The notes under the pieces are model-generated. The model did not search any database. It worked only from the letters and a program-made list of their open reading frames with translations, and was not told the DNA's origin. From an uncultured Candidatus Saccharibacteria bacterium (GTDB lineage Bacteria; Patescibacteriota; Doudnabacteria; UBA920; O2-02-FULL-48-8), in the NCBI GenBank assembly GCA_964605735.1, contig CAZSDS010000001.1, forward strand, positions 480,126-544,125: a DNA stretch of 64,000 nucleotides, given 5' to 3'. Shown piece by piece: positions 774-54,261 of this stretch. Both the position numbers and the translations under genes were made by a program. Numbering within the stretch: position 1 is the stretch's first letter; every line of letters begins with the position of its first letter.

Positions 774-813
774 CGGGAAGGGTCCCCCTTCCCTATTTTT
801 TTAAAAAATTTTT

Positions 814-13632: not shown

Positions 13633-13670
13633 AAATACCAGCTAATTGCTGGTATTTTCGTGTTTGCAAG

Positions 13671-29413: not shown

Positions 29414-29417
29414 GAAA

Positions 29418-29448
29418 AACTCCCGATGGATTTCGGGAGTTTTTTGTC
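29418..29448 (+). terminator. intrinsic terminator
   Basis: Hairpin aactcccga-tggatt-tcgggagtt followed by TTTTTTG. Confidence 0.5.
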
Positions 29449-29464
29449 AAACACGAACGTTATC

Positions 29465-29962
29465 TTAAGCAGAGCAATCATCAAACCAATTCTGGTTCAT
29501 AAGCGAGAAATCCACGGTATTCACTATTCCATCCCTGTTTATATCTGCAATCGACCCGGAAGCAAACCATTCTGAATTCATTATTGACCAATCAATAGAA
29601 TTTACGAAACAGTCACTGCTTAGATCTCCGACCAAACTGGTCAGGCCTTGTCGCTTGAAAAAATCCCACATCAAAGCATTGGCTGAGATATCTCTTGTGG
29701 TTCGTCCTATCAGAAGCGAACTTACATACTGCCACCCATCAGGCCAGGTATGACCCCCGCCTACTACCTGATAAAGTTTAACCTCCCCCTGAAGGGTGCA
29801 ACCCGGATAATCATGCAGAACCACGGAAGTAGCATCACTCACATTATCAGGCAGGTTAGTGGAATTTGAATTGACATTGCATGAATTTGTGTTTGCGAAG
29901 AGCCCGGCGGTGGCAAACGCAGAAAGAACATCACCTTTTTCAAGATATAGAGTCAGCTCCAA
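29465..29962 (-). CDS. dockerin-type-I-repeat protein whose N-terminal part resembles only the C-terminal (His-loop) region of a PHB-depolymerase-type esterase; possibly a 5'-truncated gene
   Basis: C-terminal repeats DLSSDCFVNSIDWSIMNSEW and DINRDGIVNTVDFSLMNQNW fit DxNxDGxVNxxD. Upstream VVGGGHTWPDGW resembles the esterase His motif. No GxSxG region is present. Overlaps the next gene in another frame. Confidence 0.5.
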   Translation of the reverse strand: MELTLYLEKGDVLSAFATAGLFANTNSCNVNSNSTNLPDNVSDATSVVLHDYPGCTLQGEVKLYQVVGGGHTWPDGWQYVSSLLIGRTTRDISANALMWDFFKRQGLTSLVGDLSSDCFVNSIDWSIMNSEWFASGSIADINRDGIVNTVDFSLMNQNWFDDCSA

Positions 29963-30803
29963 AACCAGATTGTTCGTATATATTCTGATAAGAAATTTTT
30001 ACCAAATCTTTCCATTCTATATTTGGATTTTTGTTTCGGAATGATTTAACAACCCAATATCCTAAGCCGTACCCTGCCCAAACTTGGTAATCGTCACTGC
30101 CAAAAAATAGCTTCCTGGAAAAATCCTTATCTACTTCCAAAAACTTAAACTTTGCTTTCTCGAAGATGGCATTGGCTTCCTGCTCGGAAATTGCCCCTGA
30201 AATAAATGGTTTTTTGTTAAGAACCGTTTCCACATAATTTTCGGCCATTCCTTCATGGACCACTTGTTCCAAAGTGCGCCATTTGAATTCTGGGTCAGCC
30301 AAAATAATTTCTTGTGCAATGGAGTGATTATATTCATGCACCAAAGTTTCGTACAACATTTCCTCCCAGCCAGAAACAGTATTTATAAAAACAATGATTG
30401 CATTCTTCCAGCCGCACCAGCCCGTCACGCCATGCATTTTTTGTTTAACAAAATCCATAAAAGTTGGGAAAATGTATACATGCGTGGTGTTCTGCGTCGG
30501 CAAAATCTTTGTACAATCCCCAATTGCCCTATCAATCACCTCTGAAATTTTTCCTACATCAAAAGTCGAACTGTTTAAATCTGGCATGCTTACGTCAAAT
30601 CCAAATATTTGATTCTTCAAGATAGGTTCTAACTGCTCCAGCCTGGAATACCCCGCGAAACCCACTTCCTTGTCTTCCTCCACATGCTGGCTTAAAGACC
30701 GAATAAAACCACCCTGATCTGCGAAATCAGTTTTAAAATCCAAAAAGAAGTGTTTTTCCAGTCTTACATTCATAACTTTAGGGCTATTTACAAATACTAT
30801 CAA
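29940..30803 (-). CDS. putative Zn-dependent protease (HExxH; DUF2268-like)
   Basis: LVHEYNHSIAQE HExxH motif in a ~290-aa soluble protein. Family call is from memory and uncertain. Confidence 0.6.
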   Translation of the reverse strand: MIVFVNSPKVMNVRLEKHFFLDFKTDFADQGGFIRSLSQHVEEDKEVGFAGYSRLEQLEPILKNQIFGFDVSMPDLNSSTFDVGKISEVIDRAIGDCTKILPTQNTTHVYIFPTFMDFVKQKMHGVTGWCGWKNAIIVFINTVSGWEEMLYETLVHEYNHSIAQEIILADPEFKWRTLEQVVHEGMAENYVETVLNKKPFISGAISEQEANAIFEKAKFKFLEVDKDFSRKLFFGSDDYQVWAGYGLGYWVVKSFRNKNPNIEWKDLVKISYQNIYEQSGFGADSIS

Positions 30804-33646: not shown

Positions 33647-35014
33647 TCATACTACATCTTCTGCTTTAGACTCTTGCAGAACTTCAACCGCCGATTCTGT
33701 TTCTGTTTTCTCAGGTTCTTCAATTTCCTGTTCAGTATCTTCATTAATCGGTTCCGATTCCTTAAACTCTGACTCCCTAACCGCTTCTTCTAATTCTTCA
33801 ACTTCTTCTGTTTCTGCTTTTTCTTCTGGTTCTTCTTCAGCTTCGCCAAAAAGCGTATAAGTCGACGACCCTCCATTGCTTAATCCCGGAGTAGGATTGC
33901 TGGTGATTACCCAATTGCCGCTGCCATCAGGAACCTGTGCGTATGTTTGGCCTCGTTTTGTTTGGCCGCAAGTCTCATCTGCATCGCAAACGCCTGGGTC
34001 AGGATATTCATACGAATCCACCAGAATATCAGAATTAAACAAACGTATTACATCTTCCTTGTTATTAATCTGAAAACCTTTTGAATTACAACCCGGAGAA
34101 CCTTTGGCGTAAACTGCCAGGAAACCATTTGGCGGAATGACAGTACTGCCCGTATTGGTCAAACAACCCCTGATCTCGATATAATGACTTCCTTGATTAT
34201 CCTTGCTGTCTCTGATCTTCCAGCCCTCAACGTCTACCGAATCCGTTTCAGATGGATTATAAAGTTCAACCCATTCTGAACCAGGCATATGGCTCTCATT
34301 CTCCGGCCATGGCATAAACTCATTGATGATAATATCCCCGGAAGACGGATTAGGATGTGAACCGCTGGATATGAAATTACCCAATTCTTCAACGTGGCTA
34401 AATCCGCTCTGCTTGTTAGGCAAATTAATCTGCCAACCAACAAATTCCAAATCAAACCTGCACTCCTCATTTAATGCTTCTTCCCCCGCGGAAAGCGGCA
34501 ATGTCAGGCTGAAAACCCAGTTTTCTGGTTCGCTAAAAACAAAAGGTCCCACATCAAACTTATCCAAACGCCCCCTAAACACCATGTCGTCATCACGATA
34601 CGCCCTCAATTCCAGTACGTCACAAAGATCTGACGAAGAAAAATTATTAGCCTCAACTTTATATTTGAAATCCAAGTTCCCCGTATTTACCATCCGAACA
34701 TTTCTGGACGAACCATCCCCTGGCGTAATCCCTGAAGGTTCAAATCCGGTTTCAGAAATAATATCAAAGGACAAGCGTCCAGAATTTATTTCTGAACGCA
34801 TGGAAGTGGCAGAATCAGAAAAGTACGCGAGTGTGGACCTGACAAATGGGAAACAAGCGGTTACCAGAACGACAAACATTAAATTAAGGACAGCAATTTT
34901 TCTGTAAGGAATTGCTCTTTGTATTTTTTTAATTCCGGAAGATTTTTGTTTCAGGCCGAATGCTGAATCAAAACTCTTTGGTACGTTTAGGGGTTTGTTA
35001 ATCCTGTTATTCAT
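33647..35014 (-). CDS. SipW-cognate-type secreted protein with C-terminal lamin-tail domain (LTD) and acidic tail
   Basis: N-terminal TM, then AYFSDSATS (TasA/SipW-cognate cleavage-region motif). IIINEFMPWPENES...SEWVELYNPSETDSVDVEGWKIRD...GFLAVYA matches the LTD consensus. Overlaps sipW by 8 nt. Confidence 0.75.
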   Translation of the reverse strand: MNNRINKPLNVPKSFDSAFGLKQKSSGIKKIQRAIPYRKIAVLNLMFVVLVTACFPFVRSTLAYFSDSATSMRSEINSGRLSFDIISETGFEPSGITPGDGSSRNVRMVNTGNLDFKYKVEANNFSSSDLCDVLELRAYRDDDMVFRGRLDKFDVGPFVFSEPENWVFSLTLPLSAGEEALNEECRFDLEFVGWQINLPNKQSGFSHVEELGNFISSGSHPNPSSGDIIINEFMPWPENESHMPGSEWVELYNPSETDSVDVEGWKIRDSKDNQGSHYIEIRGCLTNTGSTVIPPNGFLAVYAKGSPGCNSKGFQINNKEDVIRLFNSDILVDSYEYPDPGVCDADETCGQTKRGQTYAQVPDGSGNWVITSNPTPGLSNGGSSTYTLFGEAEEEPEEKAETEEVEELEEAVRESEFKESEPINEDTEQEIEEPEKTETESAVEVLQESKAEDVV

Positions 35015-35525
35015 TGTTTTCTGCCTTTCGCCTATTCCGGATCTTCTTTATTTCATCCCAAATAACGGATAATTCCTCAATTATCAAAAGCACGGCCGGC
35101 AAAATTATCAGGATTGTGAATCCGACTGGCTGTTTTGCAAAGTCAATAATGTATCCTACATGCGGCACGGTGAGAAAAACTTTGCCGATAATCTCATTTT
35201 GCACGACTTCATTTTGATCATCCGAATCATTTGCATCACCTTTAGTGGTGAAGGTCTCATTCGTATTTTTCCGAATTATCCTGTGAGTGGTCGGGACTGA
35301 ATTGGCTTTGCCAAAAGTTATTATATCTCCAGCGGTGTATGAAGCCTGTTGTTTGACAAATACTAAACTCCCCGTCATGACGGCTGGTTCCATGGAACCG
35401 GACTCAACCACATACGCCTTAAAGTTTCCAAAGACAGGGAATGCGGTCAGCAATAACAAGAACCCGATTGCTGAAAGCAGCAAGGTTAGAAATATTGTTG
35501 CGGTTTTTGTTGCCAGTTTTTTCAA
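35007..35525 (-). CDS. sipW: signal peptidase I, SipW (archaeal/ER-type S26B)
   Basis: N-terminal TM. SGSMEP catalytic Ser motif and downstream His region (TTHRIIRK) are typical of SipW-type peptidases. C-terminal TM. Confidence 0.85.
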   Translation of the reverse strand: MKKLATKTATIFLTLLLSAIGFLLLLTAFPVFGNFKAYVVESGSMEPAVMTGSLVFVKQQASYTAGDIITFGKANSVPTTHRIIRKNTNETFTTKGDANDSDDQNEVVQNEIIGKVFLTVPHVGYIIDFAKQPVGFTILIILPAVLLIIEELSVIWDEIKKIRNRRKAENNE

Positions 35526-35589
35526 AGGGGTTGAAGTTAGTTAACCTTATTAGCCGCCTGAAAAAAATTTCCGGCGGCTTAAAGATGAG

Positions 35590-36375
35590 CTAAGGAACGA
35601 TCTGATAGTCTAAATTACCACGTAGCCAGTTATTGTGCCCATGGTTTGGTCCAACATAACCCGGAGTTGACGTTAGGAAACTATCAAGCGCTGCGTCATT
35701 GGTTTGGGTAGCGTCAACAGTTAAACTCAAGCTTAAACTCTGATTTTGATATAAGTTACCAGCTTCTTCTGCCATACCTAATCTGAAACTGAATTTGTAT
35801 GCATATCCTGGATTCAAAGCGCCTGATAGATTATTCCCCACACCAATATTCCAAATGTTCATTCTGGTATTCCAAGTATCCAAGCTGATTTTTCCAAAAT
35901 CATATGATGTAGCGCTAACAGGCCACCTTCCGCTTCCAATACCATCAGTAATAAACTGATCAACTACTGGTCCATCCGGAGCTGGGTCAGGATATCCAAA
36001 ATCCGGTTGTGCCCAGCTACCGCCATCAGGTGTTAAAAAAGCCATCTTAGCATCTTTGATGTAAATGGCTTTTTCCATACCTTCATCCCCCATAACATTA
36101 AAATGTCCAAACCAAGCCAGAGGCATTGCACCGTCATTCTTGACTATCACATCGACCCAATCTGTTGAGTCACCAGGAGCCAAAACCAAATTATCAGCTA
36201 AGGTCCATTCAAAAGACTCTGCTGAATCATTTTCATTCACATCCAAACTTAAAGTACCTGATGACAAAGTGCTTGTAGCACTTGTTGTAGTGTCAGTGAA
36301 AAACGCACCAGTGGCAGCAGTAACCGCAACCGCAATGATCACAATCATGCTGACACTCATTAATATTCTTTTCAT
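35590..36375 (-). CDS. TasA/camelysin (peptidase M73)-family SipW-cognate protein
   Basis: Signal region ending ...ATGAFFTDTTTS (AFFTD motif typical of TasA/CalY). Size and composition fit the family. Confidence 0.8.
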   Translation of the reverse strand: MKRILMSVSMIVIIAVAVTAATGAFFTDTTTSATSTLSSGTLSLDVNENDSAESFEWTLADNLVLAPGDSTDWVDVIVKNDGAMPLAWFGHFNVMGDEGMEKAIYIKDAKMAFLTPDGGSWAQPDFGYPDPAPDGPVVDQFITDGIGSGRWPVSATSYDFGKISLDTWNTRMNIWNIGVGNNLSGALNPGYAYKFSFRLGMAEEAGNLYQNQSLSLSLTVDATQTNDAALDSFLTSTPGYVGPNHGHNNWLRGNLDYQIVP

Positions 36376-36728
36376 TTTTAACCTTTCTTTTTGCGCAAAT
36401 GCGCGATTAGTTATTTGTTCCTGTTATAACCCCAAATGTCGAAAATACATTATGGGAGCATCACGCCCCCAACTGGAGCAAGGAAATTTTCCCGGCCCCA
36501 TACCGGGGGCCTAACAGAAGATTTATGGCTATCCGCTTAGAGCGTTCGACCAATAGCCTCTCGCATATAGCTTTATGCTTAGCAATAAGCGTAAGCCTAA
36601 GCAATAACGCCGTCAATGCCTTTTTGTGAATAACAAGTGCATAACATGTGCACAAAAATAAAACCATAAGTTCGCTAAAACTCATGGTTTGTACGTAATC
36701 CTGCCCTGTTTTAACAAAGACCTTTAGG

Positions 36729-38342
36729 TTAAATAGTCTTAAGCCAATTTCCGTTCATGATGGAAAAATCAACAGTGTTAACTAAACCATCCTTGTTCAG
36801 ATCAGCAACCGGGTCTGAAGTCAGCCATTTGGAATTCATAATAGACCAATCAATGCTATTAACAATCCGGTCACTATTTAGATCACCCAACAAACCCGGA
36901 GGTGGAGGGGGCGGACCACTGGAATTTGCAAACTCATATGCTCCCACGTCATAGGCACTGCCCTGCGGCCTTGCCACGCCATCCTTGTCTGTCTGCACTG
37001 AACTGACAAATACCCCGGCATCTAAAGCCAGCGAACCACTGGCCAAATGATAATTGTAGGCAGGCATATTCACGAAATCAGATCCGGAAGCAAGCCTGCT
37101 TGATGAAGAATTTTTTGCGATAGCAGGCATAGAGGTTCCATACACCAACAAATTGCTGATGAACACAGGGTTGGTCTGGGCTGTCCCTGCCTGGTGGAAC
37201 GGAACGGTAATGCCGGAACCAAAAGTGTTGTTAAACAGGCGCAAATTGTTGATGTTGTCTTCGTACCTCACTGCAGTTGAGGCATTGTAAATCAGGTTGT
37301 TGTAAGCAATCACTTCTGCTCCCCCATTTGATCCGGGTCCCCGCAAACGCAAGGCAATCTCAGAATCATAGATTTCATTGCCTTCCACAATGGCAGAAAT
37401 ATTTTCTTTCAAATTCAGCGCGGCCATGTTGCTTATCAACCCGTTACGGTATCCGTTAAAAACATTGTTCCTAATGTGCAAAGTTCCTCGAGGCGCAGTC
37501 CCGCTGATTTTGGTATCAATGGCATTCTCACCCGGCACCATCCCGGCTGAATAGCCGTTCTGGGCGGACGGAAGCGGCCCCAGCCAAAAATGGGAATTCT
37601 CCACTACAACATTTCTCCAGCCATTGGCGTTTCGGCCCGGGTCAATTTGCAGGGCATCGCCGGAGAAACTGTGAATTTCAGTGTTCCTGATAATTAAGCC
37701 GTCAGTAAAACTGCCTCCAGCCGCTATTCCATGAGCATCCGCTCTGCCAACTGCAGGATCCCAATAAAGGCAATGGTGAATCAAACTGTTTTCGATCAAA
37801 ACATTGTCCGGCCCGCTCATGTCCATGCAGTCCCGGCCTGCCCGCCTCAACTCACTGTTTAAAAACTTGAAAAAGTTGCCACCGGAGGTAACCCTTGCCG
37901 CGTCAGCCGCGGAGTACTGCGCGTCAAACGTCAAACCATCCACCACTAAGTGCTCGTGGCTGATGGACAGCACCTGTCCGGATTTGGTAATGAGGACAGA
38001 ACCGCGGCCCTGTTCAGAACGGACTGTAATCGGGGCCTGGGCAGTGCCGGAGCGGACACTTGTTAAAGTTTCGTTGTACGTCCCGGGAAGAATAATTAGA
38101 GTGTCTCCCGGCTGGAGCGCACCAACACCTTTTGCCAGGGTCTTATATGGGGAGTTCTTTGTTCCGGAGTTCGCGTCATTCCCGGATGAAGAAACGTAGA
38201 AAGTTGTTGCTGCACGGGACACGTTAAAGTTAATGTTAGAACGCTGGGCAACAAGGAAAGCCAGGACAAGGCAAAACGCCAAGCCAAAAGTCCATAATAT
38301 AACCCAGAGCACATCTACTTTGTGTTTCTTGCTTTGTGACAT
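36729..38342 (-). CDS. right-handed parallel beta-helix (pectate-lyase-fold) protein with C-terminal dockerin-like module
   Basis: N-terminal TM/signal. Multiple NxxxN-type beta-helix repeats (IRNNVFNGYRNGLISN...). C-terminal DLNSDRIVNSIDWSIMNSKW and DLNKDGLVNTVDFSIMNGNW are dockerin type I-like repeats. Confidence 0.8.
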   Translation of the reverse strand: MSQSKKHKVDVLWVILWTFGLAFCLVLAFLVAQRSNINFNVSRAATTFYVSSSGNDANSGTKNSPYKTLAKGVGALQPGDTLIILPGTYNETLTSVRSGTAQAPITVRSEQGRGSVLITKSGQVLSISHEHLVVDGLTFDAQYSAADAARVTSGGNFFKFLNSELRRAGRDCMDMSGPDNVLIENSLIHHCLYWDPAVGRADAHGIAAGGSFTDGLIIRNTEIHSFSGDALQIDPGRNANGWRNVVVENSHFWLGPLPSAQNGYSAGMVPGENAIDTKISGTAPRGTLHIRNNVFNGYRNGLISNMAALNLKENISAIVEGNEIYDSEIALRLRGPGSNGGAEVIAYNNLIYNASTAVRYEDNINNLRLFNNTFGSGITVPFHQAGTAQTNPVFISNLLVYGTSMPAIAKNSSSSRLASGSDFVNMPAYNYHLASGSLALDAGVFVSSVQTDKDGVARPQGSAYDVGAYEFANSSGPPPPPPGLLGDLNSDRIVNSIDWSIMNSKWLTSDPVADLNKDGLVNTVDFSIMNGNWLKTI

Positions 38343-41867: not shown

Positions 41868-41950
41868 TTGTTTGGCTCAACATCGTGAACAACGTTGGAA
41901 ACATACTTCAGAGGCAGAATCAGTATGTTTATATACCTGATTTACAATCT
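41868..41950 (-). repeat. conserved 3'-UTR element, copy a (family of three: 41868-41950, 46534-46612, 47108-47169)
   Basis: All three copies share TTGGCTC(A/C)(A/G)ATCG(G)TGGAC(A/G)A...TTAGA. Copies a and b also share CAGTAT(G/A)TTTAT(A/G)TACCTGA(T/C)TTA. Each copy sits between a minus-strand stop codon and a different terminator hairpin. Confidence 0.5.
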
Positions 41951-41960
41951 GCCCGATAAA

Positions 41961-44411
41961 TTACTTGGTAACTGTGAATACAGAACTTACTGTAAAACTC
42001 CCATCAAGATTTACTAATTGAATTTTATATTGGCCTGGTTTTACTTGAGTATCTGCTCCACCCTCAAAACTACCATTTGAATCTACAAGTTGAGCCGTCC
42101 AATATAACTGTTTAGCAGTGCTGCCAGCATATACTTGCTTCGTGCTTATATATCCCGTAAAACCGCTATTATCTGCAGGGATAAGCATCAAGTTTATTTC
42201 GCCTAACGTTGGACCGTCCCATTTAAGTAAATTGTTACCACCTTGCTTCATTGTCGTAGGGACAACAAAATTCGTAGCTTTAATGCCTGAAACATTATCG
42301 AATTTTATACTGCTTACCATTTTTAATATAGCATCTCTATCTGTTGTATTATTCCATACCACTTCTATACGCCCACAAGAAATACTAAAACTTGAATCGC
42401 ATTTAGTCCATGCAGATACTGTATCCGTAATGTAATATCTTTTCATTCCTAAGCTTCCAGAAGTCCAAGTCCTTACAGTTGCGTTTTTACCACCGACTTT
42501 TTCAGTTGATGTCGTAGGAGTTACATTTGGATTGTTTTTGAAATCAAACCCGCCTTTAGGGACTATAGCCATATAGTTTCCGTAATCAGAGGAATCTCTA
42601 CTCCATAAGTATCTGCCAGTTTGGCTTTCTAAAGCCCAATTTTTTGGTATTGATACCTGATAATGGTCATCAGTATTTATGAAAGGTATAGCATCCGAAG
42701 TGCCGCTTGTGGAATTAGAACTTTGAGGATTCCTGAAATCCAAAGGCTTTTTATACATATCACTTATATCACTGGAGGTAAGAGTTGCTTGATATTCTGC
42801 ATCTAGTCCTTTAATTTCCCAAATACCTAAATCTAAGCTTGATGCAATCAAATAAACTAAGGTATCTCCGTCCAGATCTGCAGCAACTGCCTTCATATCT
42901 GGAATATAACTATCTACTTTTTCAAGATTACTGGCGTGATATTTACTTGGTAAGCTCTGAAGAGCTTTAAATATGCGGTCTTGTCCAGCCACAGTAGAAT
43001 CGTCTGTTTTTCTATTCCAAGCAGGGTCATCAATCATAGTTAATTCAACCCTGGCCTTACCAGCCTTTTCAATATATAAAAACAATTTATCCAGATGACC
43101 TTCTAACCGCCCTTTGCACCAAATATCGTTAGGGTCATTTATGAAATCCAATAATTCTGTTGACAGTAATCCATCCTCATCTTTCAGAACAGCATAAGTG
43201 TATCCTTCCCCGCCTAATTGTGCCAGTCCAGTATTTTTGGTATCTAATACCTCTACAATCTCGAATTTCATATCTGAACGGACATAATTCACGTTATAGT
43301 ATTTATCTTTATAACGATGTGCCCCAACTGAATCAATATCACTTATACAAGACAAGTATCGATTAATTTCTTGAGCTCTTGGTGCATTCGAAGCGACTAA
43401 GTTATCTTGTTCATAAGCCATCGGTATACCAAGTGTTATAATTTTGCCGACATTAGGGTCATTCTTTTGAACTTGGTCTTTTGTTCCGCTATTAACAACA
43501 AAATAAATCGGCCATCCAACCAGTAACACTAAACCTATCCCGATAACAATTGAGGTATATTTCCAAATTTTCTTTTTTCGAATTTGTTCTGGAGTAAGCT
43601 CAGGTGCTGCTGGGACTGGAATTGATTGGCTAGGATTATTCGGGTCAACCATCATCGTAGGTGCAACAATCATTTGTTGTTTCAACAAGCCCCTAAAGTA
43701 AGCGTAGACTAAGGCAACTGGCCCCAAGAAAGGTAAGATAAAAAAGAATGGAAGGAAAAGTATAAATAAATTGAACGCTGCAATTTGAGAAGAGAAAGAA
43801 CCCGAAGTAAATGAAAGTGAAGTAAGTATTCTAAACAGCTCGACAACTACGACAAACAAACCCGTCCAAACTACTAATAAAGAACGGCTCCATTTTTTCC
43901 AGAAATAAAACAGTATCAAAAGCGAAATAACAAAATCTGTGAACGACAAAATTTTAGTTACCAAAGCTTGTCCTAGAAAAACTCTACTTAATATGCCATT
44001 AGCAATGTAATAAACCAAATAAGCATTCCCGATAGTAACCAAAATTAAAACGATTATCTTTTCAATACTTTCTAGTAATCTAGGCTTCGGTTGATTTATT
44101 TCGATTGGTTCTGGATTTTTTCTATATTTTATATAGTAAGCAATACATCCAATTATATAACCATATATAAGCTGCCCCAATAAAGGAGTTAAAAACAATG
44201 TTAACAATCCACCCTTCTTAAACAAAAGAGCGGCTCCTACGCCGCTCCAAAAGAAACCCCCAACAAAAGCTTGGACAATTATACTTGAAACTATATTACC
44301 TTTAGGTAGAACCGCTGCTAAAGAAAACCCAACTATCATTAAGATAATTGCAGTTGCAAAAGCCCAAGCTATCCTGTGTTTGGTTGGCTTAAAGGCTTGT
44401 TTTATTGTCAT
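41961..44411 (-). CDS. large polytopic membrane protein (816 aa) with C-terminal extracytoplasmic domain; hypothetical
   Basis: About 10 N-terminal TM helices, then a ~500-aa soluble region. No recognised domain. Confidence 0.7.
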   Translation of the reverse strand: MTIKQAFKPTKHRIAWAFATAIILMIVGFSLAAVLPKGNIVSSIIVQAFVGGFFWSGVGAALLFKKGGLLTLFLTPLLGQLIYGYIIGCIAYYIKYRKNPEPIEINQPKPRLLESIEKIIVLILVTIGNAYLVYYIANGILSRVFLGQALVTKILSFTDFVISLLILFYFWKKWSRSLLVVWTGLFVVVVELFRILTSLSFTSGSFSSQIAAFNLFILFLPFFFILPFLGPVALVYAYFRGLLKQQMIVAPTMMVDPNNPSQSIPVPAAPELTPEQIRKKKIWKYTSIVIGIGLVLLVGWPIYFVVNSGTKDQVQKNDPNVGKIITLGIPMAYEQDNLVASNAPRAQEINRYLSCISDIDSVGAHRYKDKYYNVNYVRSDMKFEIVEVLDTKNTGLAQLGGEGYTYAVLKDEDGLLSTELLDFINDPNDIWCKGRLEGHLDKLFLYIEKAGKARVELTMIDDPAWNRKTDDSTVAGQDRIFKALQSLPSKYHASNLEKVDSYIPDMKAVAADLDGDTLVYLIASSLDLGIWEIKGLDAEYQATLTSSDISDMYKKPLDFRNPQSSNSTSGTSDAIPFINTDDHYQVSIPKNWALESQTGRYLWSRDSSDYGNYMAIVPKGGFDFKNNPNVTPTTSTEKVGGKNATVRTWTSGSLGMKRYYITDTVSAWTKCDSSFSISCGRIEVVWNNTTDRDAILKMVSSIKFDNVSGIKATNFVVPTTMKQGGNNLLKWDGPTLGEINLMLIPADNSGFTGYISTKQVYAGSTAKQLYWTAQLVDSNGSFEGGADTQVKPGQYKIQLVNLDGSFTVSSVFTVTK

Positions 44412-44650
44412 TTTGTTTCATTGTAATTTAATGATGCCTTTTGCTCATTCTAGCGGAAAACTGAGCAGAACGCTAGTTGGAACTAACCGAGAAAACTTTT
44501 GAGTTAGCTACTTACGCCACAAAGTATTTATTACTACCAAAGGTAAAGAAGGGTTAGAACTCAAGAAAGAAATTCTATTGGCTTTAGGTCCAACCCCAAT
44601 AGTAATAAACAAAGAACCAACCATTGAACCGAATGAATGGTTTGTTCCTA

Positions 44651-44845
44651 TCATACTCCATATCTGACCCCACTATCACTGTTCCCTATGAAGTTGACCT
44701 CGTTACCCTCTTTCAATTCACCATCCATATATGTTCCTGGATCAATAATACTAGACCAGTCCCGGAAAGTCGTATCACTCCAAAGCACTTCCCACACTTT
44801 TTCTCTAGAAGCGTTTATTTCAATAGAATGTTGCATTTTATTCAT
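44651..44845 (-). pseudogene. truncated paralogue of the SRPBCC gene at 38459..38923 (first ~64 codons only)
   Basis: Translation MNKMQHSIEINASREKVWEVLWSDTTFRDWS...NFIGNSDSGVRYGV is ~75% identical to the N-terminus of the full gene. Nucleotide identity includes 14-15-mers. The reading frame ends with a stop where the full gene continues. Confidence 0.6.
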
Positions 44846-44861
44846 ACACTAATGATACACT

Positions 44862-45494
44862 TTAGAATAGATTGTCCGCTACGGATCTCAACCATGCTTT
44901 CGAGTACTCAACATCCTGCCTGGTCAACCCATGTCCTGCAGCTATTTTTTTAACTTCAGCGTCAGCTCCTTTAGCAGTCAATGCTTTGGTTAACTTATCC
45001 GTGTCTTCAGACCCTACCATTTCATCCATTAGTCCTGACAATATTAAAACTTTTGTTTGAGTCAACGGTGGCATTTTTTTGGACAAAGCCTCAGACATGG
45101 GCCTGAAAAGAATACCCATTTTCAAAACCTCTGGTTTGTCAGTCATCAAATGAAGAGCAATATTGGCTCCATTGGAATAACCTACGGCAACAAGGCCGTT
45201 TAGGCTAAACCCGTAAGTTTTTGAACTTTCGACGATAAAATTTGCAAGCTCGTTTGAACGTTTCTCTAAATCCTTAAAATCAAATACACCTGGTGACAGC
45301 CTTTTGAAAAACCTTGGCATGCCATCTTCTATAACTTGCCCTCGCGGACTGAGGATGTTAGCACTAAAATCTAAGTCCTCACCCAATGGGACCAAGTCAT
45401 GTTCGTTTCCACCCGTGCCGTGCAGCAACAATAAAGTCAGTGGACTTTTTTTATCTATATAGATATGTTCGAAACCTTGAATCGCTTTATTCAT
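44862..45494 (-). CDS. phospholipase/carboxylesterase-family alpha/beta hydrolase
   Basis: LLLLHGTGGNEHDL and GYSNGANIALHLM (GxSxG) are typical of PF02230-like esterases. Confidence 0.8.
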   Translation of the reverse strand: MNKAIQGFEHIYIDKKSPLTLLLLHGTGGNEHDLVPLGEDLDFSANILSPRGQVIEDGMPRFFKRLSPGVFDFKDLEKRSNELANFIVESSKTYGFSLNGLVAVGYSNGANIALHLMTDKPEVLKMGILFRPMSEALSKKMPPLTQTKVLILSGLMDEMVGSEDTDKLTKALTAKGADAEVKKIAAGHGLTRQDVEYSKAWLRSVADNLF

Positions 45495-46440
45495 TTTTAG
45501 GCAATATCAATTTAGGCAAAACTTTTTCTATTTCACTACGATGCGGTTCATACAGTGGTGTTAGGCTTAAGGATGTGCCTAGTTTTTCTTCCGGCTCGTC
45601 TATGGTGAACCCTGGACCATCTGTAGCTATTTCGAACAACACTCCACCCGGTTCATGAAAATAAATTGATTGAAAATATGTTCTGTCTATGATCGGTGAA
45701 ACGTTTGCTCCAATGCCGGATAATTTTTTGTGCCATTGCTCTTGCACCGTACCATCCTTAACCCGAAAAGCCACATGGTGGATAATTCCTGTGCCCATGC
45801 TGCCGGGAAAAAAATCAGGAGCCTCTCTAACATCTATGAAAGTACCCAAACCACTTTCCGGCAAAGAATACCTGTAGGTATTTTCGGTTTGCCCTAGCAG
45901 TTGATACCCCATCATTTCACGAAGAAACTTGTCCGTATCCTCAAAGCCATCTTCTAATAAAGTAACCGAATAAAAACCTCGGATAGCGTGCTCTGTTGGG
46001 ACGCCGTAACCGGCAAAAACTTTTTTATTCACGGTTTTATTGTCAGCCACAAGTTCAAGCAATATATCATCCGGGTCCCTAAAACTTATATAGTTATCAA
46101 TAAACCTGGTACCCTTATTTTTTTCAAATGGGATACCCTTAGCAGTAAGTCGCCCGATCCAAAATTCCATTGAGCTCTCGGGAATTGAGAAGGAAATAGT
46201 AAATGCCTGGTTAACACCCTTTTGACCTTTCCTGCCACCTTCCCAAGCAAAAAAAGTTAAAGCCGTGCCAGGAGAGCCCACTGAATCACCAAAATACAAA
46301 TGATAAGTGCCAGGATCATCCTGGTTTACAGACAATTTTACAAACTTCAAGCCTAAAACCTGTGTGTAGAAGTCTATATTACGTTGCGCGTTATTTGTTA
46401 TGGCTGTTATATGATGCAAACCTAAAATTGTGTCTTTCAT
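45487..46440 (-). CDS. two-domain VOC-family ring-cleaving dioxygenase-like protein (MhqO/YfiE-like)
   Basis: LGLHHITAITNNAQRNIDFYTQVLGLKFVK plus a second VOC module (HHVAFRV...). Glyoxalase/extradiol-dioxygenase fold. Confidence 0.75.
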   Translation of the reverse strand: MKDTILGLHHITAITNNAQRNIDFYTQVLGLKFVKLSVNQDDPGTYHLYFGDSVGSPGTALTFFAWEGGRKGQKGVNQAFTISFSIPESSMEFWIGRLTAKGIPFEKNKGTRFIDNYISFRDPDDILLELVADNKTVNKKVFAGYGVPTEHAIRGFYSVTLLEDGFEDTDKFLREMMGYQLLGQTENTYRYSLPESGLGTFIDVREAPDFFPGSMGTGIIHHVAFRVKDGTVQEQWHKKLSGIGANVSPIIDRTYFQSIYFHEPGGVLFEIATDGPGFTIDEPEEKLGTSLSLTPLYEPHRSEIEKVLPKLILPKNE

Positions 46441-46533
46441 ATACTCATGAGTATACCCCTGGTTTTAATAAAAATGAAGCAATATTTTTCTCTAAAATAA
46501 AAAAACGTCCGACCACAAGGGTCAGACATTTTT

Positions 46534-46612
46534 CTTTGGCTCAACATCGGTGGACAATGTTAGAGCTAATATCCAAAACAAGAACAGTATATTTATGTAC
46601 CTGACTTAAGTA
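46534..46612 (-). repeat. conserved 3'-UTR element, copy b
   Basis: See copy a. Followed, in the direction of transcription, by terminator hairpin gacc-acaag-ggtc plus a T/A run at ~46500-46535. Confidence 0.5.
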
Positions 46613-46615
46613 ATG

Positions 46616-46900
46616 TTAACCAAAGTATCCCGCACTAAACAGAGATAAAAATGCAAATATTGCTAATAAAACAACTATTGTCCAAAGCACATATCTTAGC
46701 AAGTTATTCTTACCAGTGTTTTGAATACCTGAAGAGAAAAATCCAATTATAGTAAGGGTTGGAATAAGCACAAAGGCTCCGAAAAATGCATAAGGCGAAA
46801 GTAATGAATGAACAATAAATTGAATTCGAGAACAAGTGCTAAGTACTAGAAGTCCATAAGTAGTTATTGGTGCATTTCCCTGAATAAGACGTAATTCCAA
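46616..46900 (-). CDS. small hydrophobic membrane protein; adjacent overlapping ORF 46839..47045 suggests a possible frameshifted single gene
   Basis: Two overlapping minus-strand ORFs, both hydrophobic, overlapping by ~60 nt in different frames. Confidence 0.35.
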   Translation of the reverse strand: MELRLIQGNAPITTYGLLVLSTCSRIQFIVHSLLSPYAFFGAFVLIPTLTIIGFFSSGIQNTGKNNLLRYVLWTIVVLLAIFAFLSLFSAGYFG

Positions 46901-47107
46901 TTACAACACATACAACTAACAATAGGACAAGATATGTCATAAAACCTTTTACAAAACCATCAAATAACCTGTTTTCTGAAGATGGTTTCTGGGAAACTGG
47001 ATTGTCTATGTTTGTTTCCATATATTTTTTCTTTAGCGTAAGCATATCACAGGCATAATTCTAGCGTCCACACACTTGAACAAAAAACACCAATAAACAT
47101 TGGTGTC

Positions 47108-47169
47108 CTTTGTTGGCTCCGAATCGTGGACGATATTAGAACGTACTATATGCAAATAGGTAGTGCGTC
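47108..47169 (-). repeat. conserved 3'-UTR element, copy c
   Basis: See copy a. Followed by the perfect hairpin caccaat-aaac-attggtg with an A-run and T-rich flank at ~47047-47100. Confidence 0.5.
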
Positions 47170-48477
47170 TTATTCTGGAATGCTTTGATCTTGTGAAGGA
47201 ATATCCTCCCATTCTCCTTTATCATTTTTTCTCCTATTCATAACTTCGGGAGGAAAACGGGTCCACTTACCTTTCTTACCTCTAACCATTCGTTTTATTA
47301 CAATGTGTCTAGCTTGATCAGAATCAAGAATGTTATTAGGTTCTGGCGCACTTTTTGCCTGTCGTTCAAACTCCCGAATTTTATTCATAAGTTCTTCGGA
47401 TGCTTTTGTCTTTGGAGGAGGTCCATCATTCAATTTTCTTTGTCTCCAATCTTTTGCCATGTATTTGTCCCATAAACCACAAATCATGAATGAACCATCT
47501 TGCGGCGGAAACATAGCAAAACTTGAAACGCCTTTTGCTTTGGTCTCATCAGATAACGCATTGTAATGTTGATCTAATGCTTTAAGGTCAGCTTTAAGAT
47601 CAGGGCCAGCAATGAAGGTTTGATCATCACGGACAAAATACGGGGCAACCTGCTGATGTAATTTATCACTCGAAGTAAATACCTTGCAGAATGGCAAGTA
47701 ATAAAGATAGGCCATGTCAATTTTATGGCTCTGTCGACCTCTTCCAATCAAATCAGAGGCAATGGCAAGATAAAAAAACATATCAACCGACAAAACATAA
47801 GCAAAGTAAGGCGCAAACTTTCTAATGGGTGGCGTTCCTAAATTTTTCCAGCGTTCTAATACAAGTTTTTGAGAATGAAAAGGAATACCAATTAGCCACA
47901 TTCCAAATACCAGCATGTGTTCTTTATTTGGTCCATCAATAAGTCCATCAGTTAAAGACTTAATCTCGCTTAAATTTTTAGGTTTGCCGGAGTTAAAAAA
48001 TTGCTGAAATAAAAGATATTTATCTTCAAGATTGATATTGGATAAAGCCGCTCGCCATCCTTTTGCGTGCAAGCGCTCAATTTCCATAAAATCTCCATCT
48101 TGCCATCTTTCAAAGGCTTCTTCCTCGGGCGACTGCTCAAACATAATTCCATAGCCTTCCTCTGTTTCTACATGCTTGCCACCACCGATTATTGGTCGAC
48201 CACTCATTTCAACATTCCCTTGGCCGGTCAATTCTCCGGCCAAAAGTGTCTGATGATGGACACCCGGCCGCGCACTCATATCAGGAGTTTTGTAAGCAAG
48301 GCTTCCTACAACTTCTTCTGGTTTTCGTCCAGACTTAATTTCTTTTTCCAGATCAGCAAGGGTCTCAATGAAAAATAATGGAGTAATGTTGCTATTGAAA
48401 AAATTATCAAGCCACATTGCTTCGTCAGGATTCAAACTTTGAAGAAATGATTTATCAAAAATTAGACTTGGACCCAT
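47170..48477 (-). CDS. hypothetical protein (435 aa), third gene of a tightly coupled three-gene operon
   Basis: Start is 1 nt after the upstream gene's stop. No recognisable motifs. Low-GC composition. Confidence 0.6.
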   Translation of the reverse strand: MGPSLIFDKSFLQSLNPDEAMWLDNFFNSNITPLFFIETLADLEKEIKSGRKPEEVVGSLAYKTPDMSARPGVHHQTLLAGELTGQGNVEMSGRPIIGGGKHVETEEGYGIMFEQSPEEEAFERWQDGDFMEIERLHAKGWRAALSNINLEDKYLLFQQFFNSGKPKNLSEIKSLTDGLIDGPNKEHMLVFGMWLIGIPFHSQKLVLERWKNLGTPPIRKFAPYFAYVLSVDMFFYLAIASDLIGRGRQSHKIDMAYLYYLPFCKVFTSSDKLHQQVAPYFVRDDQTFIAGPDLKADLKALDQHYNALSDETKAKGVSSFAMFPPQDGSFMICGLWDKYMAKDWRQRKLNDGPPPKTKASEELMNKIREFERQAKSAPEPNNILDSDQARHIVIKRMVRGKKGKWTRFPPEVMNRRKNDKGEWEDIPSQDQSIPE

Positions 48478-48478
48478 A

Positions 48479-49228
48479 TCACGGGATCTCCTTTTGCAGA
48501 TATCTGCTTAAAATACGTTTTCCATGTTCTTCCGGAATATGTATAACTCGCAATTCCCCGGATTCACTAATTGCTGCCTCTATGACCCACGGACGCATGG
48601 AAGAAGTTAACGGAGATATTACAAAGATGTAAAGCATTCCGCTAATTAGGAAATTATATCCAATAACGCCGGATTCCATTCTGATTTTTTTAGGTTCTGA
48701 AATTAGCTCCTTGGGCAATGAAGCGTGTTTAGTATAACTGTTGATTATACAAGGAAAAAGATCACTTGGTCCGGGATCCTCTTCCACCAACATTTTACGA
48801 ACTACTTCTTCGTATTTTCCAAGTGATACTAAACCAAAGAATGGTCGTTTTGAAATACTTGCCCTCCATAGTATGGACAATAGAAACAGTTTGAACTTTT
48901 TGTAATCAATTCCAGTCGCAAATGTAAACTCTACTCCATGTTGATTCTTTTGATTCTCAAATCTGATATTGACGCCTTTTGGGAGTTTCCCACCGTAGAG
49001 AATAAGTCTTCCATAGGTTTCGAACTTACTTAATTTCGCCTCACAATCCCTGCAGAGAATCCCAGCTTCGAATTCGCCTGTATGAAGTTTCCTCTCCTTA
49101 TCCCAATCATCCGATTTGAATCTAATTAAGCTATGGTTTTCATCGAAAATATCAGAATACATAAAATCAGGAATGATATGGGACTTGTTAACTAATTGTT
49201 TATCGCAAAGACAAAGTTTACAAATCAT
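48479..49228 (-). CDS. HNH-like nuclease-motif protein (249 aa), second gene of the three-gene operon
   Basis: N-terminus CKLCLCDKQLVNKSHIIPDF...DENH...CRDCEAKL has a Cys pair, His, Asn/His and a second Cys pair arranged like an HNH/zinc-finger nuclease motif. Start overlaps the upstream gene stop by 4 nt. Confidence 0.55.
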   Translation of the reverse strand: MICKLCLCDKQLVNKSHIIPDFMYSDIFDENHSLIRFKSDDWDKERKLHTGEFEAGILCRDCEAKLSKFETYGRLILYGGKLPKGVNIRFENQKNQHGVEFTFATGIDYKKFKLFLLSILWRASISKRPFFGLVSLGKYEEVVRKMLVEEDPGPSDLFPCIINSYTKHASLPKELISEPKKIRMESGVIGYNFLISGMLYIFVISPLTSSMRPWVIEAAISESGELRVIHIPEEHGKRILSRYLQKEIP

Positions 49229-50844
49229 AATAATCGCTCCTGTTCTTCTGACATCGGGACTTGCAGATCGTCTTTGTAGAATTCCTTAAATTTTTTATCC
49301 AAGAAGTTCGGAGAGGGTTTTAGGTTATTCTCCTTAAACGCTTTTGATATTTCAGCAGATACTCCGGAAGCCGGATTTTGATTTGCCCTTTTTGCTACTT
49401 CGTCAATCTCGATATAGTCTTTGACGTAGTAGTAGTTTTCTAATTCTTCCACGGAAAATAAAGTATATTCAAAGTCTTTAATCCCTGGACATTTGCTATC
49501 CATGCCTTCTAAGGCTTTTTTGATATCTTCTTGGTAGATAGTGGTTGAAACAAGCGGGATATCATAGAAAATACCTACGCAAGTTAGCTTCTTTTTTTCA
49601 AAGCCTTTTAGTTCCGGATATTTGCCAACATCCGAACACCTATCATACATTTGTTTGATAGTTTTTGTTATTTTTTCAAAAACTTCTTTCCTAATTAAAT
49701 CAGGATCTCCTGTTTGCAATGTGCCTAATGGGAACTGATAACCTTTCGCTTCAAAGAGTAAAATATTTTCATCTTTATGAACTATCCAGTCAAAAAAAGT
49801 CTTCTTATCTTTTTTTGTGCCATAAGGGATACCACGCATAACAGCACTTTCTCCATACATGTCCTTCAATACCATCCCAACATACTCTTCAAACAATAAA
49901 CCGAAGTAATCACGGAATGTTTTTCCAATTGCATTTTCGAAGATCCAATACAAGCCCCTAAATGCGCCTTTAACATAAGCGCTAATGCTCGGTGCGATAT
50001 AATCATTTACGCCCAGTTTTACAATTGGTTTTTCCCATAATGGGTTATATCGATTCTTGGTGTATTCAGGTTGTAATTTTGCATTATATTTCTGATCGAG
50101 ATTGCGTAGTTCTTCTGGACTCCCAGCAAGCAGCGCTAAGATCGCATTTACTTTTTCGTCAGTAAGAACTTCGGCTAAACCTCCTTGGATAGTTGATCCG
50201 GTAAACTTACCCATATTGAATCTTGGCGAATTCATAATCGCCGCAAAAATAGCGAACGATAATTTAACGTATTCTTGTATGCTCATACCAAATTTTTCAA
50301 AAAGGATTTTGTCCAAATTGATTTGACTGTTTATGTTAATTTGGGCTGACTGAAAAATAAGCAACTGTCGCGTAAAAGCATCTTTGATATCTTGCTGACT
50401 ACTAAACTGCTGGTATGTCATAGGGACCAGTAAAGCTGCTATCCCTTTTTTGTTTATTGGTTGGACAAGGGTGCTGAAATAGATATTAAATAATGCTAAG
50501 ACATCATCCTTATTTTTTATGCTTAAACTTTTATGGTTATTGGAGCCAGAAATGAGTAATATATTGCTAATGTATTCAATTGCGAAATCAGTAAGAAATA
50601 AGCCGGTAAGTTTGTGGATTGCAAAGCCAACCTTTTCTTTTTTAATGGCAGAATTTTCATGAAAATTATTATCAAAAAGTTTGTTTGAAATATCCCCTAA
50701 AATTGATAGCGCCTCGTCCAGCTTGTACCCTTTCAAGGCATTACAAAACTCCTCCTGAGATACTGTCAGTTCGGGCTTGTTGCATAACGCTGATAGTCTT
50801 GGTTCAGCTTCCAGAATGTATTTACCTTGTTGATCCCTGAACAT
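49225..50844 (-). CDS. hypothetical protein (539 aa), first gene of the three-gene operon; C-terminal region contains a possible PD-(D/E)xK-like motif
   Basis: FDWIVHKDENILLFEAKGYQF has D...E-x-K spacing reminiscent of a restriction-endonuclease-fold core. No P-loop found. Very AT-rich relative to flanks. Confidence 0.55.
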   Translation of the reverse strand: MFRDQQGKYILEAEPRLSALCNKPELTVSQEEFCNALKGYKLDEALSILGDISNKLFDNNFHENSAIKKEKVGFAIHKLTGLFLTDFAIEYISNILLISGSNNHKSLSIKNKDDVLALFNIYFSTLVQPINKKGIAALLVPMTYQQFSSQQDIKDAFTRQLLIFQSAQININSQINLDKILFEKFGMSIQEYVKLSFAIFAAIMNSPRFNMGKFTGSTIQGGLAEVLTDEKVNAILALLAGSPEELRNLDQKYNAKLQPEYTKNRYNPLWEKPIVKLGVNDYIAPSISAYVKGAFRGLYWIFENAIGKTFRDYFGLLFEEYVGMVLKDMYGESAVMRGIPYGTKKDKKTFFDWIVHKDENILLFEAKGYQFPLGTLQTGDPDLIRKEVFEKITKTIKQMYDRCSDVGKYPELKGFEKKKLTCVGIFYDIPLVSTTIYQEDIKKALEGMDSKCPGIKDFEYTLFSVEELENYYYVKDYIEIDEVAKRANQNPASGVSAEISKAFKENNLKPSPNFLDKKFKEFYKDDLQVPMSEEQERLL

Positions 50845-50944
50845 AAAATTAACGTTTATTCCTTATATTTTAGCATTTTGCAGCACTTAATTAAATCAGC
50901 TATAACTGTTATAATTTACTCACAATTCATAGTAGCCTAAACCG

Positions 50945-51080
50945 AACAGAAATGGTCGGCATGGCGAAAAAAGTCCCATGGAAGATACTGAACCCTACGT
51001 TCAGCGCTCTTCCATGGGCCATGCCGGGAAACTGGCATGGGGACCGCAAGGTCCCGGCTGGCGTGGGGCTTTGTGTTTTA
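50945..51080 (+). other. GC-rich structured element (two or more stable hairpins) upstream of a 48-codon membrane-peptide ORF
   Basis: Read directly: ccatggaaga...tcttccatgg (10-bp stem) and gggacc-gcaa-ggtccc hairpins. No ORF with a plausible start. Confidence 0.3.
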
Positions 51081-51104
51081 CGCCGGCAGAAAGGATAAAA
51101 ACCC

Positions 51105-51251
51105 ATGGATATCATTTGGGGAATCATAGTTCCGGTGTTGATAGGACTTATCGCTTACGGCCTCACCAAAGGCCTAAAATGGCTCGCTGGGCGATCAAAG
51201 ATCTTCAAAAAGGTAATTGATCTGGCTGAAAGACCGATTGGGAAAAAATAG
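51105..51251 (+). CDS. 48-aa hydrophobic peptide (single TM; holin/type-I-toxin-like)
   Basis: aaggataaaaaccc precedes the ATG. Translation MDIIWGIIVPVLIGLIAYGLTKGLKWLAGRSKIFKKVIDLAERPIGKK. Below the size cut-off of the ORF track. Confidence 0.35.
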   Translation: MDIIWGIIVPVLIGLIAYGLTKGLKWLAGRSKIFKKVIDLAERPIGKK

Positions 51252-51453
51252 GTGCACATCCGTTCATCTTGACGGCAAAAAGATAAACATTTACGATTAA
51301 TCTAACAATTGAAAAAGTCTTGTTTAGTTATTAGGAATTGATTGCTGTCAGCAATCGGGACAAAAGCCCTTACCCAATGACTACGTTCAAAAATGACTCA
51401 ACTGGTATAACAGTTGGCTAAACAAGTATCTTGAATAAAGATCGGCACAAAAG

Positions 51454-51510
51454 CCCATAAATTTGAGAATTACAATTTGTAATTCTGAGGTTTATGGGTT
51501 TTTTGGTTTT
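51454..51510 (+). terminator. 45-bp imperfect palindrome followed by TTTTTTGGTTTTTT (strong terminator, or candidate recombinase att/operator site)
   Basis: cccataaatttgagaattacaa|tttgtaattctgaggtttatggg then a T-run. Confidence 0.45.
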
Positions 51511-51524
51511 TTAACCTAAAATTT

Positions 51525-51818
51525 ATGCCCGGAGAAACATCAAAACTTAATGGAATGAAAGGTGGCCGGCCAAGCGGTAGCAAGGCAGCTCACACTCTTG
51601 AAGCGCAGACTCTTAGGCAATATCTAATAAGCCGAACGATTGAAGAGCATAAGCCCTTAGTTGAGGCTTTGATCCGGAAAGCAAAACGCGGAGATTTGGG
51701 TTCAATTAAAGAGGTTTTCGAAAGGGTGCTGGGCAAGGAGAAAGATCCAACCACACCGAAGATTATTGTCCAAACGCTTCAAAGAAGCATAGAGGAAGAC
51801 AGAGAAAAATACGCTTAA
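51525..51818 (+). CDS. hypothetical basic protein (97 aa) within the integrated element
   Basis: ORF. No SD, and it starts directly after the terminator-like palindrome. Confidence 0.4.
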   Translation: MPGETSKLNGMKGGRPSGSKAAHTLEAQTLRQYLISRTIEEHKPLVEALIRKAKRGDLGSIKEVFERVLGKEKDPTTPKIIVQTLQRSIEEDREKYA

Positions 51819-52484: not shown

Positions 52485-52494
52485 ATAAAGACCC

Positions 52495-54251
<1,757 letters not shown>

Positions 54252-54261
<10 letters not shown>

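Follow-up and report, generated by a model that had tools for sequence, protein, structure and literature searches.

Two minus-strand open reading frames (ORFs) with dockerin-like C-terminal modules have been followed up in a 64,000-nt stretch (the window, about 8% of its contig) of contig CAZSDS010000001.1 from an uncultured bacterium of the Patescibacteriota. ORF A (36729..38342, 537 amino acids, aa) is identical to a protein on record (P0001; NCBI, Logan), and ORF B (29465..29962, 165 aa) is a gene call in the public annotation (P0121). A preliminary description of this DNA had read both C-termini as carrying the type I dockerin signature, and the Pfam scan bears this out: Dockerin_1 (PF00404) matches ORF A with 28.0 bits (E 2.5e-6) and ORF B with 25.0 bits (E 2.3e-5), both above the curated gathering cut-off of 22.9 bits.

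The C-terminus of ORF A is formed by DLNSDRIVNSIDWSIMNSKWLT-SDPVA-DLNKDGLVNTVDFSIMNGNWLK (aa 487–535, nt 36738..36884), and that of ORF B, by DLSSDCFVNSIDWSIMNSEWFA-SGSIA-DINRDGIVNTVDFSLMNQNWFD (aa 113–161, nt 29480..29626), all on the minus strand. Each module consists of two tandem 22-residue calcium-loop/helix segments with a 5-residue linker between them. Module A (aa 484–537, 36732..36893; segments at 36819..36884 and 36738..36803) is identified by Pfam Dockerin_1, by sequence matches in PDB and by a model of the dockerin alone, and module B (aa 110–165, 29468..29635; segments at 29561..29626 and 29480..29545), by Pfam Dockerin_1. The ligands at loop positions 1, 3, 5, 9 and 12 are D-N-D-N-D in both segments of ORF A and in the second segment of ORF B, and D-S-D-N-D in the first segment of ORF B. 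This first loop of module B has Ser at position 3 and Phe at position 7, both off the consensus of the dockerin subtype (22 modules, see below), where position 3 is Asn in 21 modules, and position 7, Ile in 18 and Val in three. The four segments are the only matches of the calcium-loop pattern in all six frames of the window, hence the match is not due to chance.

The repeats of the two proteins had been described as near-identical, which overstates their similarity: modules A and B agree in 35 of 51 residues (69%) and in 72% of their bases. Of the 51 codon pairs in the alignment, 20 are the same, 15 have synonymous differences only, and 16 encode different amino acids. These counts point to an old divergence under purifying selection with no recent copying; recent duplication of, or gene conversion between, the two modules was considered and ruled out given the 72% DNA identity and the many synonymous differences.

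In a sequence search with module A against all PDB chains, the top 14 matches are dockerin modules or dockerin-bearing cellulosomal enzymes (E from 9e-5; among them 2yik, 3ul4_B, 2mte, 1daq, 2ccl_B and 1ohz_B), with alignments to dockerins requiring a gap of 5–7 residues, because the inter-segment linker is unusually short here. The AlphaFold model of the dockerin alone, built from 11 sequences, has a predicted local distance difference test (pLDDT) score of 78.6 and features a predicted helix after each calcium loop. When this model is compared with PDB by Foldseek, all 19 matches are dockerin-containing chains, most of them from cohesin–dockerin complexes, the best one being 2y3n_B (template-modelling (TM) scores 0.77/0.81, root-mean-square deviation 1.1 Å), so that structure modelling, too, agrees with the family assignment of the preliminary description.

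The same description had named generic EF-hand or thrombospondin-type calcium loops as the reading that would speak against a dockerin, that is, type 3 thrombospondin or EF-hand repeats stabilizing the C-terminus and having no docking role. The 12-residue loop is indeed EF-hand-like by sequence, and the sarcoplasmic calcium-binding protein 7wbo is the first EF-hand protein among the PDB matches (E 0.06), but it is outranked by 14 dockerin-bearing chains, all fold matches are dockerins, and for the repeats Pfam lists Dockerin_1 alone at E≤1, with no EF-hand or thrombospondin family listed for either ORF A or ORF B. Moreover, a stabilizing loop would leave unexplained the helix residues W/F13, S14 and W20, conserved in the 22 modules of the subtype, and the clustering with cohesin genes considered below. 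We hold such repeats to be a highly improbable explanation; judged by sequence, loop chemistry and predicted fold, the modules are true dockerins of the type I family.

We compared the modules with type I dockerins of cellulosomal enzymes (PF00404; Clostridium thermocellum Xyn10B/Cel48S, 1ohz, 2mte, 1daq; Bacteroides cellulosolvens 2y3n_B). Shared features are the tandem arrangement of two 22-residue segments, in which a helix comes after a 12-residue calcium loop (D-x-N-x-D-x-x-V-N-x-x-D), and, in ORF A, the C-terminal placement of the module after a proline linker on a putative exported enzyme. The two segments are also nearly symmetrical, the property that underlies the dual binding mode in type I dockerins. 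On the other hand, the linker between the segments has only five residues, the helix carries W/F13-S14-x-M16-N17 and W20 instead of the Ser-Thr and Lys-Arg recognition pairs of C. thermocellum, and the cargo of ORF A is not a cellulase, with no scaffoldin known.

Scanning of a genome collection with both dockerins yielded seven loci, all of them in Patescibacteria assemblies, namely Zambryskibacteria (76% identity), Nomurabacteria, Paceibacterota, three Azambacteria and one assembly labelled “Patescibacteria group.” Identity to the window dockerins in these relatives is 50–76%. Among the 22 modules of the subtype, the layout of 22+5+22 residues is found in 21, D1, N9, D12, W/F13 and W20 are invariant, and N3, D5 and S14 nearly so, the calcium-ligand positions 3 and 5 having one exception each over both segments. 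A search of a 5.8-billion-protein set with the dockerin profile returned only ten short fragments, with the query proteins themselves missing, the word index of that search being poor for a 55-aa query.

In nine of 11 distinct loci (L001–L011), Pfam-positive cohesin genes adjoin the dockerin genes within a few kb, and in the remaining two (L002 and L005) the sequence ends at the dockerin gene. Pfam Cohesin scores above the threshold in L007, L004, L001, L003 and L008, and a hidden Markov model (HMM) built from these cohesins has matches in L001, L003, L004, L006, L007 and L008/L009; the loci L010 and L011, reached from cohesin matches, show the same clustering of cohesin and dockerin genes. 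The usual cohesin protein in these relatives has 187–216 aa, with a single cohesin behind an N-terminal membrane helix, while others combine one or two cohesins with immunoglobulin (Ig)-like domains and a dockerin or a C-terminal repeat region. No carbohydrate-binding module (CBM) matches the cohesin proteins of the related loci, which have a membrane anchor and two cohesins at most. The profile of Patescibacteria cohesins retrieves 368 proteins from the 5.8-billion-protein set, mostly of 190–250 aa and most with PF00963, and all matches with a source name come from Paceibacterota, Parcubacteria, Doudnabacteria or the Patescibacteria group.

A dense array is seen in the Zambryskibacteria assembly (L001, 1..15803), where at least ten consecutive exported proteins each have this dockerin tail. 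Embedded in the array is a 187-aa gene product with a membrane anchor and a cohesin (4508..5071), and another cohesin gene begins at the end of the locus. The cargo of this array includes several beta-helix proteins, so that the beta-helix-plus-dockerin architecture of ORF A recurs here, as well as a GDSL-like hydrolase and a glucose/sorbosone dehydrogenase; over all relatives the cargoes comprise beta-helix, GDSL-like hydrolase, glucose/sorbosone dehydrogenase, fn3 and metalloprotease-like proteins, and no cellulases. The window resembles the clusters of Parcubacteria/Paceibacteria (Zambryskibacteria, Nomurabacteria, Azambacteria and others) in the dockerin subtype, the beta-helix-plus-dockerin architecture and the exported-protein context. 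It differs from them in that its dockerin genes are isolated, 7 kb apart and with no cohesin nearby, and one of them is a stump, whereas in the clusters L001–L011 the dockerin genes adjoin cohesin genes, often in arrays.

Several proteins of the related loci have an uncommon composition. The product of L001 12167..14062 has, unusually, an internal dockerin, which lies between a glucose/sorbosone dehydrogenase propeller and a Hint (intein/hedgehog-like) domain at the C-terminus. The cohesin protein of L008 (5669..7276) contains a Kazal-type protease-inhibitor domain, and shares with that of L007 (12164..14014) a conserved C-terminal repeat region (..GPDGIKVYIVN..KRHI..) with no Pfam match, possibly a wall-binding module.

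The preliminary description held a docking system to be unusual for an organism of this type. This expectation does not hold: every named match among the 368 cohesin-profile proteins is from Patescibacteria, and cohesins and dockerins have already been reported in candidate-phyla-radiation bacteria. Shapirobacterales express cohesin and dockerin genes, and “cellulosomes” are cited for Roizmanbacterium (PMC9123182); a “simple, two-subunit cellulosome” is described in a rhizosphere Saccharibacterium (PMC6031116), and an essential dockerin-domain envelope protein, in Southlakia (PMC10633639).

Turning to the carriers, ORF A is composed, in this order, of an N-terminal hydrophobic helix, a right-handed beta-helix, a choice-of-anchor Q domain, a hexaproline linker and the dockerin, all encoded on the minus strand. 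The N-terminal segment VLWVILWTFGLAFCLVLAFLVAQ (aa 11–33, 38244..38312) has a mean Kyte-Doolittle value of up to 2.65 over 19 residues and falls within a helix predicted by AlphaFold at aa 5–38; from its sequence, it would be a signal anchor or else a signal peptide whose hydrophobic core is long. The right-handed parallel beta-helix body (aa 44–429, 37056..38213) is supported by Pfam, AlphaFold and Foldseek. Beta_helix, DUF1565 and Chondroitinas_B all score above their Pfam cut-offs, Pel9A-like stays under its own (20.7 bits against 25.2), and the AlphaFold model of the beta-helix has pLDDT 88, exceeding 90 over most of the body. The top Foldseek matches of the body are Pel9A (1ru4), lacto-N-biosidases of glycoside hydrolase (GH) family 136, rhamnogalacturonan lyase and lyases of polysaccharide lyase (PL) family 6, all at 15–18% identity. 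Pel9A 1ru4, of family PL9, is matched with E 2.2e-11, yet identity is just 18% and the TM scores are 0.40/0.51, the matches to GH136 and PL6 being about equal. The modelled fold is that of polysaccharide lyases and glycosidases, in agreement with the polysaccharide-type partner proposed earlier, and the body is likely carbohydrate-active.

The choice-of-anchor Q domain (aa 430–471, 36930..37055; NCBIfam NF041518, 46.4 bits against a cut-off of 25) closes the conserved body directly ahead of the variable C-terminal module, and is followed by the linker PPPPPP (aa 477–482, 36897..36914), read from the translation. A terminator-like hairpin with a 13-bp stem and then a T-run (36661..36690, minus strand) lies 39 nt past the stop codon. 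Over about 80% of ORF A, the body is 45–53% identical to hundreds of dockerin-less proteins, those named being from Polyangiaceae and Vicinamibacteria. It thereby resembles choice-of-anchor Q beta-helix proteins (NF041518; Pel9A-like_beta_helix/DUF1565), including the terminal motif ..RPQG.AYDVGAYE.., after which the homologues have fn3, Calx-beta, Ig-like or CBM-like domains, a Cys-rich tail and then a hydrophobic stretch, or nothing. Unlike the other homologues listed, ORF A has a dockerin tail, being the only one with it among the 120. To the beta-helix–dockerin proteins of L001 the body is only 24–30% identical, while module A is 66–76% identical to Patescibacteria dockerins. As the body is close to dockerin-less homologues and the tail to Patescibacteria dockerins, ORF A is a chimera of a widespread choice-of-anchor Q beta-helix body, from a family whose C-terminal module differs from lineage to lineage, and a lineage-specific dockerin tail.

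ORF B is of a different nature. Its first 105 residues have 3188 homologues, aligned only to residues ~218–317 of ~320-aa single-domain members; these members match Pfam Esterase_PHB (PF10503) via their N-terminal half, which is absent from ORF B, and the Pfam scan of ORF B finds no esterase domain. The homologue alignment defines aa 1–107 (29642..29962, minus strand) as a remnant of an Esterase_PHB-type alpha/beta hydrolase. In the 319-aa homologue P0273, ORF B aligns to residues 220–317, and the motifs GISNGG (148) and GTEDP (198) are located upstream of the aligned part and have no counterpart in ORF B; as the triad of alpha/beta hydrolases usually comes in the order Ser-Asp-His, we take these motifs to be the nucleophile and the acid. 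ORF B keeps only the histidine motif GGGHTWP, with neither the catalytic Ser nor the Asp, and a complete Ser-Asp-His alpha/beta-hydrolase domain (PF10503) is not present in ORF B.

Moreover, ORF B has no signal peptide and no hydrophobic N-terminus, and its start is a mechanical TTG that overlaps the 3′ end of a DUF2268 gene, with the frame opening 12 codons further upstream. The latter gene (29940..30803, minus strand), a predicted zinc protease, is intact, covering positions 3–194 of the 195 in the Pfam profile, and occupies the place expected for the 5′ two-thirds of the esterase. That DUF2268 and ORF B are connected through a frameshift was ruled out, since DUF2268 is complete and the ORF B frame is closed 12 codons upstream. 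An intrinsic-terminator hairpin with a 12-bp stem and a U-run (29415..29444, minus strand; fold energy –16.8 kcal/mol, z-score –5.3) now closes the transcription unit of DUF2268 and the remnant. We read ORF B as what remains, at the 3′ end, of an earlier esterase–dockerin gene that has lost its 5′ two-thirds; it is probably not a functional exported protein. Hence, of the two secreted proteins proposed in the preliminary description, ORF A is retained by its hydrophobic helix at aa 11–33, and ORF B, 5′-truncated and lacking a signal peptide, is not; nor is the second cargo an intact esterase-like protein, ORF B comprising the C-terminal ~100 residues of an esterase of ~320.

A similar case is observed in two related loci, where a 47-aa ORF (L008, 1946..2089; L009, 1880..2023) consists of nothing but the second half of the same dockerin subtype and overlaps the end of an AbiEii toxin gene. 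This stub is a second dockerin gene 5′-truncated by a neighboring gene in the same way as ORF B.

ORF B might instead be a functional small protein, e.g., a free dockerin-bearing adaptor or a competitor, and the stub of L008/L009 has likewise been called as a gene. Its 165 codons are open and form a public gene call, its dockerin still scores above the Pfam threshold, its own terminator is kept, and the codon differences from module A, 15 of them purely synonymous and 16 not, show past purifying selection. Still, with no signal peptide the dockerin would stay in the cytoplasm, the TTG start is inside the preceding gene, the nucleophile Ser and the Asp of the esterase are missing, and two near-invariant positions of calcium loop 1 are altered. 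A functional ORF B seems to us quite unlikely.

Given the type I dockerin family of the modules and the pectate-lyase-like fold of the ORF A cargo, one may think of a true cellulosome, i.e., a multi-enzyme complex acting on the plant cell wall and assembled on a multi-cohesin scaffoldin with a CBM, and the word itself is used in papers on related bacteria (PMC9123182, PMC6031116). However, the window contains no multi-cohesin scaffoldin, no CBM and no cellulosomal glycoside hydrolase. No dockerin-borne cellulase or hemicellulase (GH5, GH9, GH48, GH10) is found there either, the cargoes being the beta-helix and the esterase stump. The membrane-anchored cohesin proteins of the relatives have a single cohesin or, at most, two, and the cargoes there are not cellulases. 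A cellulosome is thus scarcely credible here, and the “cellulosome-like” display suggested at the outset goes too far, there being no cellulases and no scaffoldin with a CBM or several cohesins. As such scaffoldins and dockerin-borne cellulases are found neither here nor in the relatives, the system is best described as a non-cellulosomal cohesin–dockerin tether.

Non-cellulosomal pairs of cohesins and dockerins are known, e.g., NagH–NagJ of Clostridium perfringens (2ozn) and those of Archaeoglobus fulgidus, and a survey by Peer et al. from 2009 reportedly covers non-cellulosomal cohesins and dockerins across three domains. The predicted system is similar to such pairs in that a dockerin would tether or assemble a non-cellulolytic exported enzyme, and 2ozn_B is among the Foldseek matches of the model. 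It differs from NagH–NagJ-type pairs in lineage and cargo, the Patescibacteria pair being a predicted one.

We assign a probability of about 0.65 to the reading in which a non-cellulosomal cohesin–dockerin pair tethers ORF A, a beta-helix enzyme active on polysaccharides, to the surface of the cell, with ORF B being a stump. ORF A would be exported, either secreted or held by its N-terminal membrane helix, and would probably act on a polysaccharide. The two loops of its dockerin are predicted to bind calcium via Asp1, Asn3, Asp5, Asn9, Asp12 and a backbone carbonyl, which would fold the two helices into a cohesin-binding face. Elsewhere in the genome there would be a gene for a small cohesin protein, membrane-anchored or wall-associated, into whose cohesin the dockerin could then plug, and the enzyme would thereby be held at the surface of a tiny cell. 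The location of the partner elsewhere in the genome is a reasonable inference by analogy, since relatives cluster cohesin and dockerin genes.

Several observations weigh against this reading. Pfam finds no cohesin in 49 ORFs of the window, and the custom HMM of Patescibacteria cohesins, run over its six frames, gives a best E of 2.2. The window dockerins have no adjoining cohesin, unlike those in nine of the 11 related loci, and this genome is absent from the 120 listed of the 368 cohesin matches. The dockerin is of low confidence within the full-length AlphaFold model of ORF A (pLDDT ~45), and only one of the five dockerin-only models is good. The identity of the beta-helix to any characterized enzyme is at most 18%, its activity being only putative. 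The searched literature contains no binding measurements for Patescibacteria cohesin–dockerin pairs, and no demonstrated target for the cargo of this cohesin–dockerin kit.

The 64 kb that surround the two dockerin genes lack a cohesin, contrary to most relatives, and this genome is missing from the 120 listed cohesin matches, as would also be expected of an orphan dockerin, in a genome with no cohesin, where the module binds a glycan, the bacterium’s own wall, or a surface protein or cohesin of a host cell. Many genomes are said, in the survey by Peer et al. (2009), to have dockerin-like modules and no detectable cohesins. For Saccharibacteria, Wang et al. have speculated that host glycans are the target of envelope proteins with a dockerin domain (PMC10633639). 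At the same time, the window is only ~8% of the contig, the module is 66–76% identical to dockerins that adjoin cohesin genes in the relatives, and its helix positions are conserved as in these relatives, which argues for the same partner. We consider an orphan dockerin unlikely. Its bolder form, in which the genome is cohesin-less and the dockerin docks onto a host-cell receptor or onto cohesins of neighboring Patescibacteria, serving as a device for epibiont attachment or enzyme delivery and not for self-display, is very doubtful.

Directly downstream of ORF A, three minus-strand genes (33647..36375) resemble a TasA-type fiber operon. Their products are a TasA/camelysin-like protein of 261 aa, a SipW-like signal peptidase of 172 aa and a protein of 455 aa that combines a camelysin-like N-terminus with a lamin-tail domain. 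A sortase gene is found beside that of a 1284-aa protein with SpaA/prealbumin-like fold domains (13018..17525, minus strand), which is probably a sortase-anchored pilus or adhesin, and a type IV pilin-like gene is located at 58569..59090. At 180..2475 on the plus strand, a cobalamin riboswitch (180..297) precedes a 161-aa ORF and the gene of a 553-aa protein with a prenyltransferase/terpene-cyclase-like alpha-alpha toroid, an Ig-like domain and DUF4430, which may be a surface protein capturing cobalamin.

The region 41900..54300 is a block of low GC content (37–40%, compared to 44–49% elsewhere) that ends at tRNA-Asn (54187..54261, minus strand). The gene of a large serine recombinase (52495..54228, plus strand) overlaps the tRNA end, and the block looks like an element integrated at a tRNA gene. 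Its four large ORFs (816, 435, 249 and 539 aa) have no Pfam match. Within this putative element, between the unannotated ORFs and the recombinase, there is a LOOT RNA (Rfam RF03000) at 50934..51055 on the plus strand, with 96 bits against a cut-off of 46; this orphan RNA class may be linked to mobile elements. The four unannotated ORFs, as well as the TasA-like, SipW-like, LTD-domain and SpaA-like proteins, were considered as hidden cohesin carriers and rejected, as none of them gives a cohesin signal, the unannotated ones having been searched to E≤1. A placement of this bacterium in the Patescibacteria is also suggested by the relatives of its dockerin subtype, the small contig (797,183 bp), the LOOT RNA, and the genes for sortase, TasA/SipW and type IV pilin.

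Ultra-small Patescibacteria live on other cells, and how they retain enzymes and adhesins at their surface is poorly understood. In the relatives studied here we observe a recurrent kit, comprised of one small membrane-anchored cohesin and many exported proteins with a 49-residue dockerin, including beta-helix enzymes. This compact cohesin–dockerin kit is widespread in Patescibacteria; it is already annotated in databases and appears in a few papers, usually as a “cellulosome.” The window adds to it one cargo gene and one decayed cargo gene, which alone would be routine annotation; what makes it useful is that it points to a cohesin–dockerin pair that is compact and probably orthogonal.

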